This document shows positions 1 to 42,533 of a stretch of DNA of 64,000 nucleotides, piece after piece (position 1 is the stretch's first letter; each line of letters opens with the position of its first letter). The notes below the pieces were generated by a model. The model made no database searches. It was not told the origin of the DNA and saw nothing but the letters and a program-made list of their open reading frames with translations. The stretch is from an uncultured Candidatus Saccharimonas sp. (GTDB lineage: Bacteria; Patescibacteriota; Saccharimonadia; Saccharimonadales; OMJO01), in the NCBI GenBank assembly GCA_943353165.1, contig CALRAM010000002.1:65716-129715 (forward strand). The letters are read 5' to 3'. A program made the position numbers and the translations under genes.

Positions 1-1271
<1,271 letters not shown>

Positions 1272-3380: not shown

Positions 3381-5267
3381 ATGACTGCCCAAGAAATACG
3401 CCAAAAATACCTAGACTTTTTTAAAGCACGCAATCATTCTGTGATTCCCAGAGCTTTATTGGTGCCTCAAAACGATCCAACAACTTTATTCACCGGCAGT
3501 GGCATGCAGCCGTTAATTCCCTATTTGTTGGGCGAAAAACATTCTGATGGGACTAGGTTAGCAAACAGTCAGACCTGTCTGCGAGCTCAGGACATAGACG
3601 AAGTAGGCGACAATCGTCACACGACTTTTTTTGAGATGCTGGGTAACTGGAGCCTGGGAGATTACTTTAAAAAAGAACAACTGCCATGGTTTTTTGAGTT
3701 TCTTGTCGAGATAGTTGGACTCGACCCAAGTCGTTTGTACGTAACTTGTTGTAGCGGTTTTCCAGAATACGATGTGCCAAAAGACTCCGAATCCGGCGCT
3801 CTATGGAAACAGTTATTTGAAGCCAAAGGCATCAGTGCCAAAGAAGTAGAAGTCGGTTCCGAAGCGAATGGCTACAAAGTGGGTGCGCAAAACGGCCGCA
3901 TCTTTTATTACGACGAAAAAAACTGGTGGAGTCGCAATGGTCCTCCGCAAGACGTCAAGATAGGCGAACCATGTGGCCCTGACAGCGAAGTATTTTATTT
4001 ATTTGATGAAATTGAACACGACACTTCGTGGGGCGAAAAATGCCACCCCAACTGCGACTGCGGACGCTATATGGAGATTGGTAATTCTGTTTTCATGGAA
4101 TACATTCGCACCAAAGACGGGTTCGAAAAATTACCAAAACAGAATGTTGATTTTGGCGGGGGTCTAGAACGTATTGCGGCTGCTAAACAAAACAACCCAG
4201 ATGTATTCAGGATCAGCATTTTGTGGCCAATTATCGAAGAGCTCCAGAAGTTATCTGGCAAAAAGTATGAAAGCCACACCGAAAGCATGCGCGTGATTGC
4301 CGATCATTTGCGAGCGGCGACTTTCTTGGCTGTCGACGGACTCGTACCGAGCAATAAAGAGCAGGGATACGTAATGCGTAGACTATTACGCCGGGCTATT
4401 CGCTTCGCCTTTGATCTGGGCATCGAGCAAAATTTCTTAGAACAAGTCGTTCCAGTTATTGCTGACATGTACCACAAAGATTATCCAGAAGTTGGCCAGA
4501 AACGCTCTGTTATTATCGAGGTCTTGGTTCGCGAGGAAAAAGTCTTTCGTCAGACGTTACGAAAAGGGCTAAAAGAGTTCAAGAAACTTACTGAAAGTGG
4601 TCTGACAGGCAAAGAAGTTTTTGTGCTTTACGATACCTACGGTTTTCCGCTGGAGCTAAGCCTTGAAGAAGCCTATAAACAAGACGTCAAAGTTTCGGAC
4701 AATTGGCAAAAAGAGTTTGATAATTTGATGAACGAACAGCGGAAACGATCACAAACTGCCAGCAAAGGAATATTTAAGGGTGGTTTGGGCGGCACCAGTT
4801 TACAGCACAAAAAATACCACACCGCTACTCACCTGATGTATCAAGCGTTAAGGGATGTATTGGGTAATCATGTTGTGCAGAACGGCTCAAACATTACCGA
4901 AGAGCGACTGCGGTTTGATTTTAGTCATCCAGAAAAGGTAACACCCGAGCAGATAGAACAAGTTGAAGAAATTGTAAATAAACAGATTGCAAATGATTTA
5001 AAAGTAAGTTTTGAAGAATTTCCTACAAAAGTAGCCGTAGAAGAAAAGGGTGCTTTGGGGCAGTTTGGAGACAGATATGGCGCCACAGTAAAAGTATATA
5101 AAATGATAGCCGATGGTGCAGCAAAACCTTATAGCTTTGAAATATGTGGTGGTCCACATGTTGACCACACCTCGCAATTAGCTGGCTCACCACCCAGAAA
5201 ATTCAAAATCATTAAAGAAGAAAGCTCATCTGCAGGTATCCGAAGGATAAAAGCTATTTTAGTATAA
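3381..5267 (+). CDS. alaS: Alanyl-tRNA synthetase, short form (catalytic plus editing domains, no C-Ala domain)
   Basis: FTGSGMQP catalytic motif; editing-domain HTATHLMYQAL and CGGPHV metal motifs. I prefer the ATG at 3381 (MTAQEIRQKYLDFF) over the upstream start at 3345. Confidence 0.9.
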   Translation: MTAQEIRQKYLDFFKARNHSVIPRALLVPQNDPTTLFTGSGMQPLIPYLLGEKHSDGTRLANSQTCLRAQDIDEVGDNRHTTFFEMLGNWSLGDYFKKEQLPWFFEFLVEIVGLDPSRLYVTCCSGFPEYDVPKDSESGALWKQLFEAKGISAKEVEVGSEANGYKVGAQNGRIFYYDEKNWWSRNGPPQDVKIGEPCGPDSEVFYLFDEIEHDTSWGEKCHPNCDCGRYMEIGNSVFMEYIRTKDGFEKLPKQNVDFGGGLERIAAAKQNNPDVFRISILWPIIEELQKLSGKKYESHTESMRVIADHLRAATFLAVDGLVPSNKEQGYVMRRLLRRAIRFAFDLGIEQNFLEQVVPVIADMYHKDYPEVGQKRSVIIEVLVREEKVFRQTLRKGLKEFKKLTESGLTGKEVFVLYDTYGFPLELSLEEAYKQDVKVSDNWQKEFDNLMNEQRKRSQTASKGIFKGGLGGTSLQHKKYHTATHLMYQALRDVLGNHVVQNGSNITEERLRFDFSHPEKVTPEQIEQVEEIVNKQIANDLKVSFEEFPTKVAVEEKGALGQFGDRYGATVKVYKMIADGAAKPYSFEICGGPHVDHTSQLAGSPPRKFKIIKEESSSAGIRRIKAILV

Positions 5268-28420: not shown

Positions 28421-30061
28421 ATGAATAAAATAGCACATTATCTGCAGGAACATTTGTCCGGTGAAGTTATGACCAACCAGGAAGCACTGGAGTATTTTTC
28501 TACCGACGCCAGTATCCTGCGCTTAACTCCATCTATCGTGGTGTACCCACGGAACGAAAACGATATTCGTAAAACTACCAGATTTACTTGGCAATTGGCC
28601 GAAAGAGGCAGAGTAATACCCCTGACTGCTCGTGGATCAGGAACAGATCAGAGCGGCGCAGCGCTTGGTAGCGGGATTGTCATGATTTTCCCTGCTCATA
28701 TGCACAGAGTTTTGGATCTGGATGGAAAGACCGGCACAGTAACCATAGAACCCGGAATAAACTACGGAACACTACAACAAACTCTACATACACACGGCAG
28801 GTTTTTGCCACCGTATCCTGCGTCAAAGGAGTACAGCACAGTTGGAGGTGCCATAAGCAACAATGCCGCTGGGGAAAAAACAATAAAATACGGTAACACC
28901 CGTGATTATGTCAAAAGTTTGCGCGTTGTGCTGGCCAATGGCGAAGTCATAGAAACACGCAGAATATCCAAAAAAGAGCTAAACAAAAAATTGGGGTTGG
29001 CAACCTTTGAGGGTGAAATATATCGTAGCTTAGATGTTTTAATAGAAGAAAATAAAGCCGTATTGTCTAATTTAGCGCCCAAAGTAACAAAGAATTCATC
29101 TGGTTATGCCTTGGATTTGGTAAAACGAAAAGACGGCAGCTTTGACCTGACACCGCTAATTGTTGGCTCGCAGGGCACTTTGGGAGTGGTCAGCGAAGCT
29201 GTACTAGGAACAGAGCCTCATAACCCCAAAACGACATTGATCGTTGCTTTTTTCGACGATTTGGTGGTAGCCGAAGCAGTGTTGTTGGAATTGGATAAAA
29301 TATCTGATACACCAAGCGCCATAGAGGCGGTGGACGGAAATTTGCTAAAACTAGTTAAGTCCAAAAATCCAAATCTACTAAAGGGTGTCATAGATTCAAC
29401 TCTACCAAAGCTAGTTTTGCTGGTAGAGTTTGACAATACAAGCGATCGAATCCAAAAAAGCTTGGCCAAACGCGTAGAAAAGATAATGGCTAGCCAACAG
29501 ATAACCTGTCAGATAGAAACCGATCCCGCTGCACAAGAAAAATTGTGGAGTATCCGCCGAATGTCAGCGACAATTGCGGCTAGTGTTGATGCAAATGGAG
29601 CAAAGGCTTTGCCAATGATAGAAGATGGAATTGTGCCATTGGCTAGGTTCAAAGATTATATGCACGGAGTCTATGCACTGTTTGAGCGCTATGGCCTAGA
29701 AGCTGCAGCTTGGGGGCATGCAGGAAACGCCAACCTACATATGCAGCCGTTTCTGAACTTGTCGCAGGTCGGAGACCGTCAAAAAGTATTTAGGTTACTA
29801 GATGAGTACTATGAACTAGTGCTAAGCATGGGCGGTAGTACAACAGCAGAGCATGGCGATGGTCGTATCAGGGGGCCATATTTGCCCAGAATGTTCCAGC
29901 CCGAAGAATATGAATTGTTCCAAAAAACAAAGCAGATTTTTGATCCTTATGGCACCTTGAATCCGGGTGTCAAAATCGATGTAAAGATAGAAGACATAAA
30001 GCCACTACTCAGACACGAATACAGCACGGCTCATTGGCTACAACATATGCCGCACAACTAG
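28421..30061 (+). CDS. FAD-linked oxidase (GlcD / D-lactate dehydrogenase family)
   Basis: FAD_binding_4-type motifs (ARGSGTD, GGAISNNAAGEK) and a C-terminal oxidase domain. The start could be ATG 28421 or TTG 28397. Confidence 0.8.
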   Translation: MNKIAHYLQEHLSGEVMTNQEALEYFSTDASILRLTPSIVVYPRNENDIRKTTRFTWQLAERGRVIPLTARGSGTDQSGAALGSGIVMIFPAHMHRVLDLDGKTGTVTIEPGINYGTLQQTLHTHGRFLPPYPASKEYSTVGGAISNNAAGEKTIKYGNTRDYVKSLRVVLANGEVIETRRISKKELNKKLGLATFEGEIYRSLDVLIEENKAVLSNLAPKVTKNSSGYALDLVKRKDGSFDLTPLIVGSQGTLGVVSEAVLGTEPHNPKTTLIVAFFDDLVVAEAVLLELDKISDTPSAIEAVDGNLLKLVKSKNPNLLKGVIDSTLPKLVLLVEFDNTSDRIQKSLAKRVEKIMASQQITCQIETDPAAQEKLWSIRRMSATIAASVDANGAKALPMIEDGIVPLARFKDYMHGVYALFERYGLEAAAWGHAGNANLHMQPFLNLSQVGDRQKVFRLLDEYYELVLSMGGSTTAEHGDGRIRGPYLPRMFQPEEYELFQKTKQIFDPYGTLNPGVKIDVKIEDIKPLLRHEYSTAHWLQHMPHN

Positions 30062-30077
30062 GACACTGGTTGCCAAA

Positions 30078-30106
30078 TTGAGTTTTTGGCAAAAAAATTG
30101 TAAAAT
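30078..30106 (+). promoter_or_regulatory. Promoter in front of the truncated tRNA-Leu copy: TTGAGT - 17 nt - TAAAAT
   Basis: -35 at 30078-30083 and -10 at 30101-30106. It shares the TTGTAAAAT context with the tRNA-Leu(CAG) promoter. Confidence 0.45.
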
Positions 30107-30156
30107 AACGTGGTAAATGCGCGAGTGGTGGAATGGTAGACACGCTTGTCTGAGGG

Positions 30157-30185
30157 GTGAAACCCGCCTGTGGCGGGTTGCAAGG
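30157..30185 (+). repeat. GC hairpin repeat, copy H1 (gtgaaacccgcc-tgt-ggcgggttgcaagg)
   Basis: Stem 30161-30168 / 30172-30179 with a 3-nt loop. It directly abuts the tRNA-Leu 5' fragment. Confidence 0.85.
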
Positions 30186-30311
30186 TCGGAAGCCTGGATT
30201 GCGCAAGCAACCAAGCTGAGACGGGGTCGCAAATGATTGGGAACTAATGTTCCCAGTAATATTGTGACAGTGCCGCAAGGTGATCCCCGTCTGTGGCAAC
30301 CAAGTCCTCTC

Positions 30312-30320
30312 TGGTATAAT
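30312..30320 (+). promoter_or_regulatory. Extended -10 box TGgTATAAT for the intact tRNA-Leu(GAG)
   Basis: Ends 24 nt upstream of the tRNA 5' end. It sits where the acceptor 3' strand of the truncated copy would be. Confidence 0.55.
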
Positions 30321-30344
30321 TACTTGAACCCTGTATCGATAAAT

Positions 30345-30428
30345 GCGCGAGTGGTGGAATGGTAGACACGCTTGTCTGAGGGGCAAGTGCCGCAAGGTGT
30401 GGAGGTTCAAGTCCTCTCTCGCGCACCA
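30345..30428 (+). tRNA. tRNA-Leu (anticodon GAG), CCA encoded
   Basis: Hand-folded. Acceptor gcgcgag/ctcgcgc, anticodon stem cttgt/gcaag, loop ctGAGgg, variable arm with a GCAA loop, T arm ggagg-ttcaagt-cctct. Confidence 0.9.
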
Positions 30429-30437
30429 AAACAAAAT

Positions 30438-30466
30438 AACGACCTCTAAGGTCGTTTTGTTGTTTT
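30438..30466 (+). terminator. Intrinsic terminator after tRNA-Leu(GAG)
   Basis: Stem aacgacc/ggtcgtt followed by a U-rich tail. Confidence 0.7.
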
Positions 30467-30489
30467 GTAGCCGAGGACTTGAACCGAAA

Positions 30490-30519
30490 GGTGAGACCCG
30501 CCTGTGGCGGGTCGCAAGG
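30490..30519 (+). repeat. GC hairpin repeat, copy H2 (ggtgagacccgcc-tgt-ggcgggtcgcaagg)
   Basis: Stem 30495-30502 / 30506-30513. Confidence 0.85.
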
Positions 30520-30647
30520 ACTATTGACTGATTTAATACTTGTTTTAAGTAAGTCAAAGTCGGGGTTGCGCTAGCGTGACCAAGTCCCCCGCCTGTCTGA
30601 CCGAGCCCCCTGTCTTTTTGACAAGAAGGCCAGGCAGGACGGACAGG

Positions 30648-30756
30648 TCTCTCGCGCACCAAAACAAAATAACGACCTCCATGGTCGTTTTGTTGTTTTG
30701 TAGCCGAGGACTTGAACCGAAAGGCGAGACCCGCCAGTGGCGGGTCTCAAGGACTA
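30648..30756 (+). repeat. 109-nt direct repeat, copy 2 (orphan tRNA-Leu acceptor 3' strand + CCA + terminator + linker + hairpin H3)
   Basis: Starts at tctctcgcgcacca with no tRNA body upstream. The five differences from copy 1 fall in or next to hairpin loops and at one stem-closing position. Confidence 0.9.
30723..30752 (+). repeat. GC hairpin repeat, copy H3 (ggcgagacccgcc-agt-ggcgggtctcaagg)
   Basis: Perfect 10-bp stem gagacccgcc/ggcgggtctc. Confidence 0.85.
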
Positions 30757-30767
30757 GATACTAATTT

Positions 30768-31898
30768 TTATGTGTCTTTTGGTTTGTTTCGGCTGATATA
30801 ATAGTTTATTTTTTCAAAAGCTACTACCTGAATTTGTCTGATTCTCTCTCTAGATACGCCCAATATTTGGGCTACTTCATCTAGAGTTTTTGGGTCTCCA
30901 GAGTCTATCCCAAACCGAAGCTTTAGTATATTTGCTTCCCGTTCGGTCAAAGCTGACATTAGTTGTTCTAGCTGAACGCCAGAGTTTATTTGATCAGTTT
31001 TATGTTCTGTAGAGTCTACTTCTTCGGAAATAATATCGTACAGACTATTTGTATTGTCATCTGTATCAGAGCCAAATGTGCTATCTAATGATTTGGCTGG
31101 TTTTTGCTGGGTATATATCATCAGGGCGTCATTTGCATCTTCTGGGCTTATGCCTAGTTGCATTGATAGCCATTCTACTGTGGGTACTGTGCCTTTTTCT
31201 ATTTTACCGGTGGCAAGGTTGTTCATTTCTATGCTGACAAGCTTGTTTATTGTATTTTTTCTGTGGGGCAAGCGTATCAGGTGCGCGTCGTTTGCTTCGC
31301 TTCGTTCAATTGACTGTTTTATCCACCACGAAGCGTAGGTAGAAAACTTGAAGCCTTTTGACCAGTCAAACTTGGGAATACTACGTATAAGTCCTATTAC
31401 TCCGTTATTGAAATGATCATCACGGTCTACTACGGCCGTAAAAGCAGAGCCAGATCTTTTGCCGACTATGGAGGCTACCAATCTGAGATTTGCATGGACA
31501 GCTTCATTTTCAGCCCAGTCTAATATGGGAGCCACCTGATTCTTTTCGACAATGTTTGAACTGTCATCATCCAACACATCGTGGCCGCTTTTTATCAGAA
31601 AAAACAAACTAGTTTCTTGGGGCCTGTTTAATAGGTCTACGTTTTTTAGGCTGTTCAGGACTTGTCTATAAGAGAAATCGGAAAGATTTAGGTTGCCCCC
31701 TTTGTTTGTGTATTGTTGGGTTCGTTGGGCTTTCAGTTCTTCTGCAACCGACATGTATTCTATCAGAGAATTTTCTCGACGGTCTGGATCCATCAGTCCA
31801 TCAGAAATTTCCATTAAGTGTGCTCTCTGACGAGTCCATTCTTCGTTATATTCTATTTGCGGACGTGGTTCATTTTCTGGGTTGTATTGTGCAGTCAT
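30768..31898 (-). CDS. RNA polymerase sigma-70 family factor (housekeeping-like)
   Basis: Region 2 FSTYASWWIKQSIERS; region 4.2 LDEVAQILGVSRERIRQI; 376 aa. Confidence 0.9.
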   Translation of the reverse strand: MTAQYNPENEPRPQIEYNEEWTRQRAHLMEISDGLMDPDRRENSLIEYMSVAEELKAQRTQQYTNKGGNLNLSDFSYRQVLNSLKNVDLLNRPQETSLFFLIKSGHDVLDDDSSNIVEKNQVAPILDWAENEAVHANLRLVASIVGKRSGSAFTAVVDRDDHFNNGVIGLIRSIPKFDWSKGFKFSTYASWWIKQSIERSEANDAHLIRLPHRKNTINKLVSIEMNNLATGKIEKGTVPTVEWLSMQLGISPEDANDALMIYTQQKPAKSLDSTFGSDTDDNTNSLYDIISEEVDSTEHKTDQINSGVQLEQLMSALTEREANILKLRFGIDSGDPKTLDEVAQILGVSRERIRQIQVVAFEKINYYISRNKPKDT

Positions 31899-32716: not shown

Positions 32717-32792
32717 GCGGGTGTAGCTCAGTTGATAGAGCGCTTCCTTGCCAAGGAAGAGGCCAGGAGTTTGAGTCTCCTCACCCGCACCA
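32717..32792 (+). tRNA. tRNA-Gly (anticodon GCC), CCA encoded
   Basis: Hand-folded. Acceptor gcgggtg/cacccgc, anticodon loop ttGCCaa, T arm aggag-tttgagt-ctcct. Confidence 0.9.
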
Positions 32793-32800
32793 TATAAAAT

Positions 32801-32825
32801 GCCTCAGCTAGTCTGGGGCTTTTTA
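32801..32825 (+). terminator. Intrinsic terminator after tRNA-Gly
   Basis: Stem gcctcag/ctggggc followed by TTTTT. Confidence 0.7.
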
Positions 32826-32844
32826 TATGGTTTGACGACTCATA

Positions 32845-32967
32845 CTCCTGGCCTCTTCAAAGATAAAATATGGCCAGGATTGCTCGCGAACGCGCCTGTG
32901 GTCGGGAGTTTTTGAGTCTCCTCACCCGCACCATATAAAATGCCTCAGCAAACCTGGGGCTTTTTAT
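32845..32967 (+). pseudogene. Rearranged 3' fragment of tRNA-Gly with a 27-nt insert in the T stem, plus a duplicated terminator
   Basis: An inverted 14-mer of tRNA nt 40-53 (32845-32858), direct ggccagga (32872-32879), then the insert ttgctcgcgaacgcgcctgtggtcggg. T loop, acceptor 3' strand, CCA and terminator follow (32914-32967, matching 32773-32826). Confidence 0.8.
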
Positions 32968-33041
32968 TTGGCGATAGTCTTGTAAAATATGGGATATTAT
33001 AGTATAATCTGTAAATAATTTCATAAGGAAAGAAAATTAAG

Positions 33042-41661: not shown

Positions 41662-41759
41662 TCAAACCGCTTATGATAGAAGTATATCGTGCGCTAACGC
41701 GACGCGTGAAATAAATACTACAAAAACAAAAAACCACCCGTCGCGGGTGGGCGCGCACG

Positions 41760-41790
41760 AAAAAAAAGACCGATTTAATCGGTCTTTTTT
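41760..41790. terminator. Bidirectional intrinsic terminator
   Basis: Stem agaccga/tcggtct flanked by an A-run and a T-run. It serves the plus-strand membrane-protein gene and minus-strand tRNA-Ala. Confidence 0.7.
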
Positions 41791-41792
41791 GA

Positions 41793-41869
41793 TGGTGGAG
41801 CATAAGGGATTCGAACCCTTGACCTCTTCCATGCCATGGAAGCGCGCTAGCCAACTGCGCCAATGCCCC
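41793..41869 (-). tRNA. tRNA-Ala (anticodon GGC), CCA encoded
   Basis: Hand-folded on the minus strand. Acceptor ggggcat/atgctcc with G3:U70, anticodon loop atGGCat, T arm aaggg-ttcgaat-ccctt. Confidence 0.9.
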
Positions 41870-41879
41870 AAGTACGACT

Positions 41880-41888
41880 ATTATAGCA
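41880..41888 (-). promoter_or_regulatory. Extended -10 box TGcTATAAT for the intact tRNA-Ala
   Basis: Ends 10 nt upstream of the tRNA 5' end on the minus strand. Confidence 0.55.
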
Positions 41889-41975
41889 AAAAGGGTTCGA
41901 AATATTTTAGGGATTCGACTCACCTTAGGCGAGCCCGTCGCAACATCTATGCAAACCAGTTTGCAAGAGTTGACT

Positions 41976-42006
41976 CCCTTGCAACCCGCCACAGGCGGCT
42001 TTCACC
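41976..42006 (-). repeat. GC hairpin repeat, copy H4 (ggtgaaagccgcc-tgt-ggcgggttgcaaggg)
   Basis: Same 30-nt motif as H1-H3. It abuts the tRNA-Ala 5' fragment exactly as H1 abuts the tRNA-Leu fragment. Confidence 0.85.
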
Positions 42007-42128
42007 TTGACCTCTTCCATGCCATGGAAGCGCGCTAGCCAACTGCGCCAATGCCCCAAGTATGGTGTTTGGTCTGGCACCACCTAGATATAATACATTA
42101 TTTTAGTATGCGTATTTAATGCTAAAGT

Positions 42129-42533
42129 TTAGTTTTCAGCACGATAAACTTTACGTTCTTTTTCGGTCATGCCTCCCATGATGCCTGTTTGTTCTGTGTC
42201 TGACAGGGTGGATTCCAGGCATTCGTCTATTACCACACAAGATCGACAGATACTTTTGGCGTATTCTATCGCCAGAGTATCGCGCTTGTGGGGTAGCATA
42301 ATTTCTGGAGCTAGACCTAAGCATTCGGCTTCTTTAATCCATTCATTTTTGTCTGTTTTGTTGATCGGCCCGCCTTTTTTGTGCAGAGCTAGGGCTCGGT
42401 CTGCTTCGGTGCTGTTTTTAGAAGTCCAATTTACAGGTTCGCCCGGTGTTCTGATGGTTTGCCAAGGTTTCAAGGGTTCTATTATTTCTTTATGCGTTTC
42501 CCACCATTGTCTAGGCATTTCTTTTTTAGACAT
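42129..42533 (-). CDS. WhiB-like (Wbl) iron-sulfur transcription factor with a ~65-aa N-terminal extension
   Basis: Cys pattern C-x(27)-C-x2-C-x5-C (AECLG...SICRSCVVIDEC), followed by the G[IV]WGG-like turn GIMGGM and a basic tail. Confidence 0.75.
   Translation of the reverse strand: MSKKEMPRQWWETHKEIIEPLKPWQTIRTPGEPVNWTSKNSTEADRALALHKKGGPINKTDKNEWIKEAECLGLAPEIMLPHKRDTLAIEYAKSICRSCVVIDECLESTLSDTEQTGIMGGMTEKERKVYRAEN

Follow-up and report, generated by a model that had tools for sequence, protein, structure and literature searches.

A conserved three-hairpin element in partial copies of tRNA genes of Saccharibacteria

The tRNA-Ala(GGC) locus and related inserts in the window

We analysed a stretch of 64,000 nucleotides (nt), here called the window, from an uncultured Candidatus Saccharimonas sp. 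(contig CALRAM010000002.1, positions 65,716 to 129,715 of the forward strand). On the minus strand of the window, an intact tRNA-Ala(GGC) gene is preceded by a truncated copy of itself and by a short insert that we call element E. In the direction of transcription, the stop codon of a WhiB-family gene is followed by a small hairpin, the 5′ tRNA copy, E, a remnant of the interrupted copy and the intact tRNA gene. The features of the locus are as follows.

42005 to 42062, minus strand: truncated 5′ copy of tRNA-Ala(GGC), consisting of the leader TACTT (42062-42058) and tRNA nt 1-53 (42057-42005), and ending ...GGTCAAGG
41919 to 42004, minus strand: element E, 86 nt (42006-41918 when the flanking GG and T are counted)
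~42004-41980, ~41977-41935 and ~41931-41919, minus strand: hairpins H1, H2 and H3 of E, from the consensus fold and covariation
41909 to 41918, minus strand: what remains of the interrupted copy, TCGAATCCCT, matching tRNA nt 56-65 (T loop and T-stem 3′ strand)
41891 to 41903, minus strand: inverted (reverse-complement) T-arm piece, ATTTCGAACCCTT, read from the sequence
41880 to 41888, minus strand: extended -10-like box, TGCTATAAT, its hexamer ending 10 nt before tRNA +1
41793 to 41869, minus strand: intact tRNA-Ala(GGC) (ARAGORN; Rfam RF00005, 63.8 bits)
41734 to 41792, minus strand: two terminator-like hairpins 3′ of the intact tRNA, aaaaaagaccgattaaatcggtctttttttt and CCACCCGCGACGGGTGG, then a T run

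An earlier reading of this DNA from its letters (the sequence-only reading) had described a copy of the 5-nt leader and tRNA nt 1-53 identical to the intact gene. Repeat analysis confirmed this: 42005-42062 and 41817-41874 form a direct repeat of 58 nt with 100% identity (58/58), and a second TACTT leader directly precedes the intact tRNA gene. Other parts of that description also held. The copy breaks after the fourth nt of the T-stem 5′ strand (...GGTCAAGG) and continues with TGAAAGCCGCCTGTGGCGGGTTGCAAGG; a T-loop remnant without acceptor 3′ strand follows (TCGAATCCCT, with G54 and T55 missing); and a -10-like box lies 10 nt before the intact tRNA (TGCTATAAT at 41888-41880). This box was not listed by a simple -35/-10 promoter scan because it has no -35. 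The 135 nt between the 5′ fragment and the intact gene hold no open reading frame (ORF). The whole Ala-locus stretch was found with 0 mismatches in seven of 10 independent contigs encoding an identical WhiB protein (ENA, NCBI and Logan assemblies), which shows that the arrangement is real and not an assembly artefact.

Two arrangements recur at the loci described below. Type 1, to which the Ala locus belongs, has the order 5′ tRNA fragment, E, short 3′ remnant, -10-like box and intact tRNA. Type 2 begins with the intact tRNA, its terminator and a reverse-complement copy of the tRNA 3′ half that starts with TGG, followed by a turn of 3-7 nt; a direct piece of the variable loop and T stem, E, and tRNA nt ~56-76 (often matching at 21/21 or 22/22) complete it. 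The geometry with an upstream fragment that the sequence-only reading proposed is present at the Ala locus, but its mirror form (intact tRNA, E, 3′ fragment) also exists.

That reading had further noted that the insert shares its left end with an insert at a tRNA-Leu gene. We found that TGAAAGCCGCCTGTGGCGGGTTGCAAGG recurs at 30158-30185, where a 5′ copy of tRNA-Leu(GAG) with 44/44 identity directly precedes it, and at 30492-30519. The first 28 nt of the insert had three matches in the window at up to three mismatches, versus none in 100 shuffles. The related copies in the window are listed here.

30114 to 30269, plus strand: sister copy of type 1, with the tRNA-Leu(GAG) leader and nt 1-39 (30114-30157, 44/44), then E at 30158-~30269
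30490 to 30661, plus strand: sister copy of type 2, 3′ of the intact tRNA-Leu(GAG) and its terminator (covariance model 72.6 bits)
30723 to 30752, plus strand: truncated E, at the end of the second copy of a 120-nt repeat (30 bits, H1 alone aligned)

The window tRNA-Leu(GAG) therefore has copies of both types, as do tRNAs at three further loci (L026, L032, L037). Its type-1 E carries an extra hairpin in the loop of H3 and scored 46.9 bits. The type-2 copy is composed of E (30490-30581), a T-loop remnant, a palindromic insert of ~65 nt and the tRNA 3′ end GTCTCTCGCGCACCA (30647-30661). The truncated E at 30723-30752 is the fourth and more diverged copy of the window.

Other hairpin inserts were seen in the pseudo-copies of tRNA-Leu(GAG). 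The ~65-nt palindrome (30582-30646) lies between the T-loop remnant and the acceptor strand, a hairpin of ~33 nt (30232-30263) lies within the H3 loop of the type-1 E, and a short H1-like remnant (30284-30301) lies at the T stem of the upstream copy. The tRNA-Gly(GCC) locus (32717-32971) has the order tRNA, terminator, inverted copy of the variable loop and T arm (32837-32858), a GC-rich insert of ~31 nt at the T-stem site with the H1-like core CGCGCCTGTGGTCGGG, and a 3′ tRNA copy with a second terminator (32904-32971). The covariance model of E had no match in this ~31-nt insert, which is possibly a decayed E.

Distribution, junctions and fold of the element

We scanned one genome per species from 185,579 species with a degenerate 30-nt H1 motif and obtained matches at 40 loci. 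Nearly all of these carry the name Saccharibacteria or Saccharimonadales; the remainder come from other Patescibacteria or from unclassified metagenome-assembled genomes. The motif had no match in 2.9 million viral contigs, and we therefore rejected the idea that E is borne by phages. Within the motif loci, the covariance model detected 56 copies of E; the copy at the Ala locus scored 92.5 bits (model R1, E-value 8.7e-20).

E stands beside more than 12 tRNA identities, and an intact tRNA gene without intron almost always adjoins it. Its orientation follows that of the tRNA: 41 of the 42 model-detected copies within 400 nt of a tRNA were co-oriented with it, and in the motif scan the motif lay on the strand of a nearby tRNA at every locus. 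The 5′ fragments of type-1 loci are usually 95-100% identical to the neighbouring tRNA gene, and most of these loci have a -10-like box at the equivalent position when read by eye. Equivalents of the inverted T-arm piece occur at the type-1 loci L005, L034 and L035 and at the Leu locus of the window. Direct, inverted and direct copies joined at palindromes are present at type-2 loci, and the Ala locus has its inverted T-arm piece at 41903-41891.

The only copy oriented opposite to its nearest tRNA is that of L013 (849-1098), where E (944-1032, minus strand) lies between two direct repeats of ~57 nt that are not tRNA. The coupling of E to duplication of a host segment is therefore not limited to tRNAs. 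Some older 5′ tRNA fragments (L015, L016, L017, L021) contain perfect D-loop palindromes of 16-18 nt, e.g. TCCGCCGGCTGGCGGA, which may be footprints or mini-derivatives of H1.

All E copies start at the junction GG/TGA, where the slash separates host from element. Exactly two tRNA nt are missing at the junction in 13 of the 17 copies with both flanks matchable to an intact tRNA, a count that depends on maximal matching at ambiguous ends; in the Ala copy, the left match runs to nt 53 and the right one begins at nt 56. The sequence-only reading had raised the possibility of a constant insertion point at T-stem nt 52/53. The T stem hosts most copies and all type-2 copies, but E also lies in anticodon loop 37/38 of Leu-TAG, Leu-GAG and Pro-GGG, in variable loop 46 of Arg-TCG and Ala-TGC, and in anticodon stem 25-29 of Gln and Pro. 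E is also inserted into H3 of other E copies after GGG by the same junction rule (L010, L017, L021, L035, L037). Arrays occur as well, with two 165-nt units at 61/61 identity in L024 and two type-2 units in L039. One H2 subfamily was found at different tRNAs in different genomes, and the same site of tRNA-Leu(TAG) was held by different H2 subfamilies. The occurrence of the same E at more than 12 tRNA identities and 40 loci, always after GG, strongly bears out the earlier suggestion of a site-directed process rather than random decay.

An alignment of 33 simple copies over 90 nt gave a consensus fold of three hairpins, H1-H2-H3, in an element of ~86-90 nt without ORF. H1 is the hairpin GAGA.CCGCC-NGU-GGCGGGUCGC with a conserved A·G mismatch, H2 has ~17 base pairs of variable sequence, and H3 is GGUCGCC-GAA-GGUGACC. 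Of the cells, 94.6% were paired, versus 75.0% in column shuffles and 32-50% when partners were slid by one to three columns. Double-change cells numbered 188 (60 expected), and compensatory changes affected 19 of 30 pairs. The invariance of the H1 sequence is partly an artefact of collecting loci by an exact motif; copies found by the model alone had different yet complementary H1 stems, e.g. GAGAACUGCC-AGU-GGCAGUUCGC in L039. A G·U pair in H3 was kept in 29 of 33 copies, and this conservation assigns the fold to the tRNA-sense strand, whether in RNA or in single-stranded DNA.

Of the two mutually exclusive hairpins that the sequence-only reading had drawn within the insert, tgcaaac/gtttgca is the tip of H2 and has covariation support. 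The other, ttgcaag/cttgcaa, was chosen by single-sequence minimum-free-energy folding of the Ala copy and found no comparative support; single-sequence folding of 41870-42062 gave an energy no better than that of shuffles (z = -0.28). The heptamer AAGGTGA, to which that reading had drawn attention at both junctions, is not a target-site duplication. At the left junction it consists of AAGG from the tRNA and TGA from the element, and at the right junction it is the 3′ strand of E's own H3, a segment that reads CGTGAC or GGTAGG in other copies. Neither the alternative hairpins nor the heptamer repeat are general features of E.

The ends of E (TGAGA... and ...GGTGAC) are similar in direct and not in inverted orientation. 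E thus lacks the terminal inverted repeats of classical miniature inverted-repeat transposable elements, and short target-site duplications were not found at its copies either. It has strand-specific sub-terminal hairpins, H1 and H3, at both ends and no target duplication, as do palindrome-associated elements of the IS200/IS605 type.

Orthologous loci and mini GIY-YIG genes

We compared the tRNA-Ala(GGC)/ligA locus with its orthologues, given here with the identity of their LigA to that of the window.

L134, 96%: type-1 arrangement as in the window; E differs in the loops of H1 and H3 only
L021, 71%: degenerate 5′ fragment ending ...AGGTCAA, GIY-YIG ORF of 81 amino acids, intact tRNA, type-2 E with a nested second E
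L135, 71%: type 2; the same T-stem site holds an E-like insert that has diverged
L136, 69%: type 2; the insert (~160 nt) is unrelated
L138, 70%: tRNA lost, ~14 nt of its 3′ end remaining
L137, 67%: plain tRNA and terminator without fragment or insert, on a 936-kb contig

This variety of states is not that of a single old tandem duplication, and the homologous loci did not present an ordinary duplication lacking conserved insert boundaries. The Ala locus has undergone repeated remodelling, and at least one lineage can dispense with the tRNA. A search by WhiB for a close relative with an empty site yielded only 92% and 84% homologues on contigs that end inside the repeat. In the 84% relative, contig L051 ends at 4508, exactly at the last bases of the 5′ tRNA copy (...GAGGTCAA), and L052 ends at 1652, earlier within this copy. 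These ends show that the repeat breaks short-read assemblies.

GIY-YIG ORFs lie beside E-bearing tRNAs at L013, L015 and L021 (Pfam PF01541, E-values 5e-19 to 5e-13). Using an alignment of these three ORFs, we fetched 80 metagenomic loci (L054-L133). At ~70 of the 80 stand-alone GIY-YIG loci a tRNA on the same strand was found within 300 nt; the ORFs encode ~80-90 amino acids. The ends of 32 ORFs fell between -22 and +60 nt from a tRNA start, and for 16 of these 32 the stretch upstream of the ORF aligned to the adjoining tRNA with a score of at least 30. Most of the 16 are 5′ fragments of that tRNA (L106, 35/35; L120, 22/22; L070, 21/21), and in a few cases a neighbouring tRNA was probably cross-matched. 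A 12/12 match to tRNA nt 1-12 was seen at several further loci. Where the ORF is placed after a tRNA, the 3′ fragment of this tRNA follows (L056, 30/31; L059, 21/21). We conclude that tRNA genes of this bacterial group are invaded by protein-coding elements that share the partial-duplication geometry; such mini GIY-YIG genes of Patescibacteria are apparently an undescribed class.

In several pseudo-tRNAs beside GIY-YIG ORFs, the anticodon arm is replaced by a hairpin GGTCGCC-N3-6-GGCGAC (L021 101-115 and 477-491; L054 335; L056 221 and 584; L084 485; L085 1771). Its sequence resembles H3 of E, which hints at shared ancestry. A tblastn search of the window with the GIY-YIG proteins had no match.

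Nature and possible origin of the element

Our results establish a family of E copies with a common fold, a junction rule, nesting and arrays, and variable occupancy of an orthologous locus, so far restricted to genomes of Saccharibacteria/Patescibacteria. On balance, we favour the interpretation that E is a selfish, ORF-less, non-autonomous hairpin element of tRNA genes that is, or formerly was, mobile. It enters stem regions of tRNA genes, or H3 of other E copies, directly 3′ of GG. Insertion would destroy the tRNA, and copies would therefore persist only in partial duplicates beside an intact gene. A staggered break would precede insertion. GIY-YIG homing enzymes leave 2-nt 3′ overhangs, and such cleavage would suit the 2-nt gap at the junction. 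In related genomes, mini GIY-YIG genes are found in this niche and with this geometry, which makes their products the leading candidates for a putative nuclease acting in trans. The partial duplicates probably arise during break repair of the tRNA gene by fold-back or template switching, as the direct-inverted-direct signature suggests. Alternatively, a replacement piece of the target could be carried along, as with free-standing homing-endonuclease genes. The mirror-image types 1 and 2 would both result from the partial-duplication process, and the identity of the long fragment to the functional gene would reflect recent origin or gene conversion.

Several observations weigh against this interpretation. 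No transposase, integrase, reverse transcriptase or GIY-YIG gene was seen in the 64-kb window, and an autonomous version of E was not found. E was absent from all 80 GIY-YIG metagenomic loci, which shows that the two are not obligatorily linked, and the breakpoints of the GIY-YIG genes lie mostly in the D arm, outside the GG rule of E. No strain-level pair of filled and empty sites was captured, so that the insertion event was not directly seen. The ambiguous ends behind the 2-nt loss and the motif-based collection behind the invariance of H1 belong here as well. Finally, strong covariation, the conserved G·U pair and the strict co-orientation with transcription would be compatible with a functional RNA as well.

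We consider it unlikely, if worth serious attention, that E is such an RNA, i.e. a structured domain fused to a tRNA half as decoy, regulator or processing module, the partial tRNA copies being parts of an RNA gene. The strand-specific G·U pair amid strong covariation, the co-orientation of 41 of 42 copies, the near 100% identity of the adjoining tRNA fragment to the functional gene, and the well-spaced extended -10 box kept upstream of most type-1 fragments (read by eye) speak for it. However, type-2 copies come after intrinsic terminators and have no visible promoter, nesting and arrays occur, the position in the host tRNA varies, and the orthologous locus can be empty (L137) or without tRNA (L138). 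Nor did E match an Rfam family: searches at the gathering threshold (Rfam 15) returned tRNAs only, and those at E-values up to 10 in 41700-42150 and 30050-30800 gave weak chance matches only. By this test, none of the known RNA families (group I and II introns, small ribozymes, known small RNAs) fits. An improbable alternative is that E is a miniature derivative of an IS200/IS605-type transposon that moves as single-stranded DNA, with a Y1 (HUH) transposase acting on it in trans by recognizing H1 and H3 on one strand. The strand-specific sub-terminal hairpins, the motifs GGGTCGC/GGTGAC common to H1 and H3, the lack of target-site duplication, the fixed orientation to the target and the constant left flank (GG) would agree with this origin. 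But elements of this family insert without loss of target bases at a target of 4-5 nt, whereas at E only GG is constant and ~2 nt are missing; no Y1 transposase was seen among the 20 large ORFs of the window, and the partial gene duplications would be left unexplained.

The remaining explanations can be regarded as effectively excluded. Direct repeats of part of a tRNA around foreign DNA are the classical att signature of integration, which the 58/58 repeat reproduces. Integrases are known to use sub-locations in the anticodon loop and T loop of tRNA genes, and E has breakpoints in both. E as the scar of a decayed, integrase-inserted island or prophage is nevertheless quite improbable: the 'island' measures merely ~135-250 nt without integrase or kb-scale cargo, its core is a conserved covarying structure and not decaying DNA, viral contigs hold no copy, and the same E is joined to many tRNAs at differing positions and to other E copies. 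Tandem tRNA genes are common and the fragment does adjoin an intact gene, but it is hardly credible that one tandem copy simply decayed around a chance hairpin, given insert boundaries and a structure conserved in 56 copies, a fragment identical at 58/58 although the rest of its copy is gone, and a motif expected zero times by chance. We give equally little credence to a self-splicing or enzyme-spliced tRNA intron. E does sit in tRNA sequence whose helices bring its ends together, and tRNA group I introns abound in Patescibacteria (PMC13011429). Yet none of the 56 copies has complete exons on both sides, and ~2 tRNA nt are missing; ~90 nt are too small for a group I intron, Rfam gave no match even at E-values up to 10, and an intact intron-less gene is almost always adjacent. 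Junctions of the serine-recombinase (IS607-like GG core), integron attC, group II (GUGYG...AY) and spliceosomal-like kinds were also considered, and the sequences do not fit their rules.

A more far-reaching form of the favoured interpretation, which we offer tentatively as a possibility, is that E represents a novel type of mobile element in bacteria, one characterized by its fold and not by a protein. This ~90-nt three-hairpin module would home to GG in tRNA-like stems, its spread being coupled to a rescue duplication that regenerates the intact tRNA gene. It might act as single-stranded DNA, or as RNA through cleavage and ligation of its own or by a structure-specific nuclease.

Full-text literature searches returned no description of E, and the family is apparently undescribed. 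By analogy, its nearest relatives in kind seem to be mitochondrial GC clusters and hairpin elements, together with the truncated gene duplications linked to homing endonucleases. Bacterial miniature repeats include the Rickettsia palindromic elements, REP/BIME, Correia and RUP. Like E, these are selfish palindromes of ~100 nt tolerated in reduced genomes, even inside genes including RNA genes; they differ in using many kinds of site, often with terminal inverted repeats, and in coming with no partial duplication of a host gene, whereas E is tRNA-specific and co-oriented. In archaea (Thermoproteales), tRNA introns transpose among tRNA genes and place related short inserts at many non-canonical positions of different tRNAs, but these are true introns removed from functional genes by the splicing endonuclease, whereas E lies in dead fragments and cannot be spliced. 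Tandem inversion duplications reportedly form by snap-back at palindromes (the model of the Roth laboratory). Type-2 loci resemble them in their direct-inverted-direct order, which turns around at the terminator hairpin and at a very small loop; as a general mechanism and not an element, this process would explain the flanks but not E. In phage T4, SegB in the tRNA cluster is a free-standing homing-endonuclease gene that carries a replacement piece of its target.

Such genes also bring a replacement piece of the target gene in fungal mitochondria (PMC6506933). As at these genes, E loci have the displaced, partial copy of the target on the far side of the insert and the restored intact gene on the other; unlike them, E has no protein or endonuclease ORF, and its GG junction rule differs from the GIY-YIG breakpoints. 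Mobile GC clusters are found in yeast mitochondria, and double-hairpin or repetitive hairpin elements in fungal and sponge mitochondrial DNA (PMC4478555, PMC2800124). With E they share short, ORF-less, GC-rich hairpins of constrained structure in a small AT-rich genome, copies that merge, nest and form arrays, and suspected resident endonucleases. Unlike E, which shows no short duplication and an apparent loss of 2 nt, they duplicate AG/TAG at the target and are mostly intergenic. E is moreover bacterial, lies almost only in tRNA gene fragments and is coupled to partial gene duplication. We rate E as a miniature selfish hairpin element whose target is unusual and which is coupled to a rescue duplication. 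The tRNA group I introns of Patescibacteria, which were surveyed recently, are a different object.

In Saccharibacteria, tRNA genes are surrounded by an element that is conserved, structured and apparently selfish, and also by mini GIY-YIG genes; both repeatedly remodel the loci. The genomes of these bacteria measure ~1 Mb and are thought to be stripped of junk. For annotation, tRNA fragments break assemblies exactly at the repeat end and create pseudo-tRNAs. The E family offers a tractable case of a parasite in a lethal target, single-copy tRNA genes, made bearable through coupled partial duplication, and E is a candidate for a new structured nucleic-acid motif with very strong covariation.

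Two loci of the motif scan stood apart. At L031 (4978-5130), E lies inside a GC-rich structured region that has no Rfam match and no tRNA within 8 kb. L011, on a contig labelled Doudnabacteria, carries a LOOT RNA (3558-3673; RF03000, 79 bits); its E-bearing end is identical to that of the Saccharibacteria contigs L009 and L015, which makes its label or binning doubtful. The ORFs of the window are chromosomal (UvrA, UvrC, LigA, Mur ligases, WhiB; GC content 42%), and relatives with 66-71% identity to its LigA are named Saccharimonadales. A phage origin of the window was rejected, as 50,697 phage records gave one short tRNA match and the ORFs are chromosomal. WhiB and the GC content of 42% had pointed to Actinobacteria as a source, a reading that we also rejected because the loci with the motif and the relatives by LigA are all Saccharibacteria; the window is therefore part of a Saccharibacteria chromosome. 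The WhiB-family gene (42129-42533, minus strand; PF02467, E-value 2.5e-16) adjoins the Ala locus in relatives too. WhiB proteins are typical of Actinobacteria, which are known hosts of Saccharibacteria.

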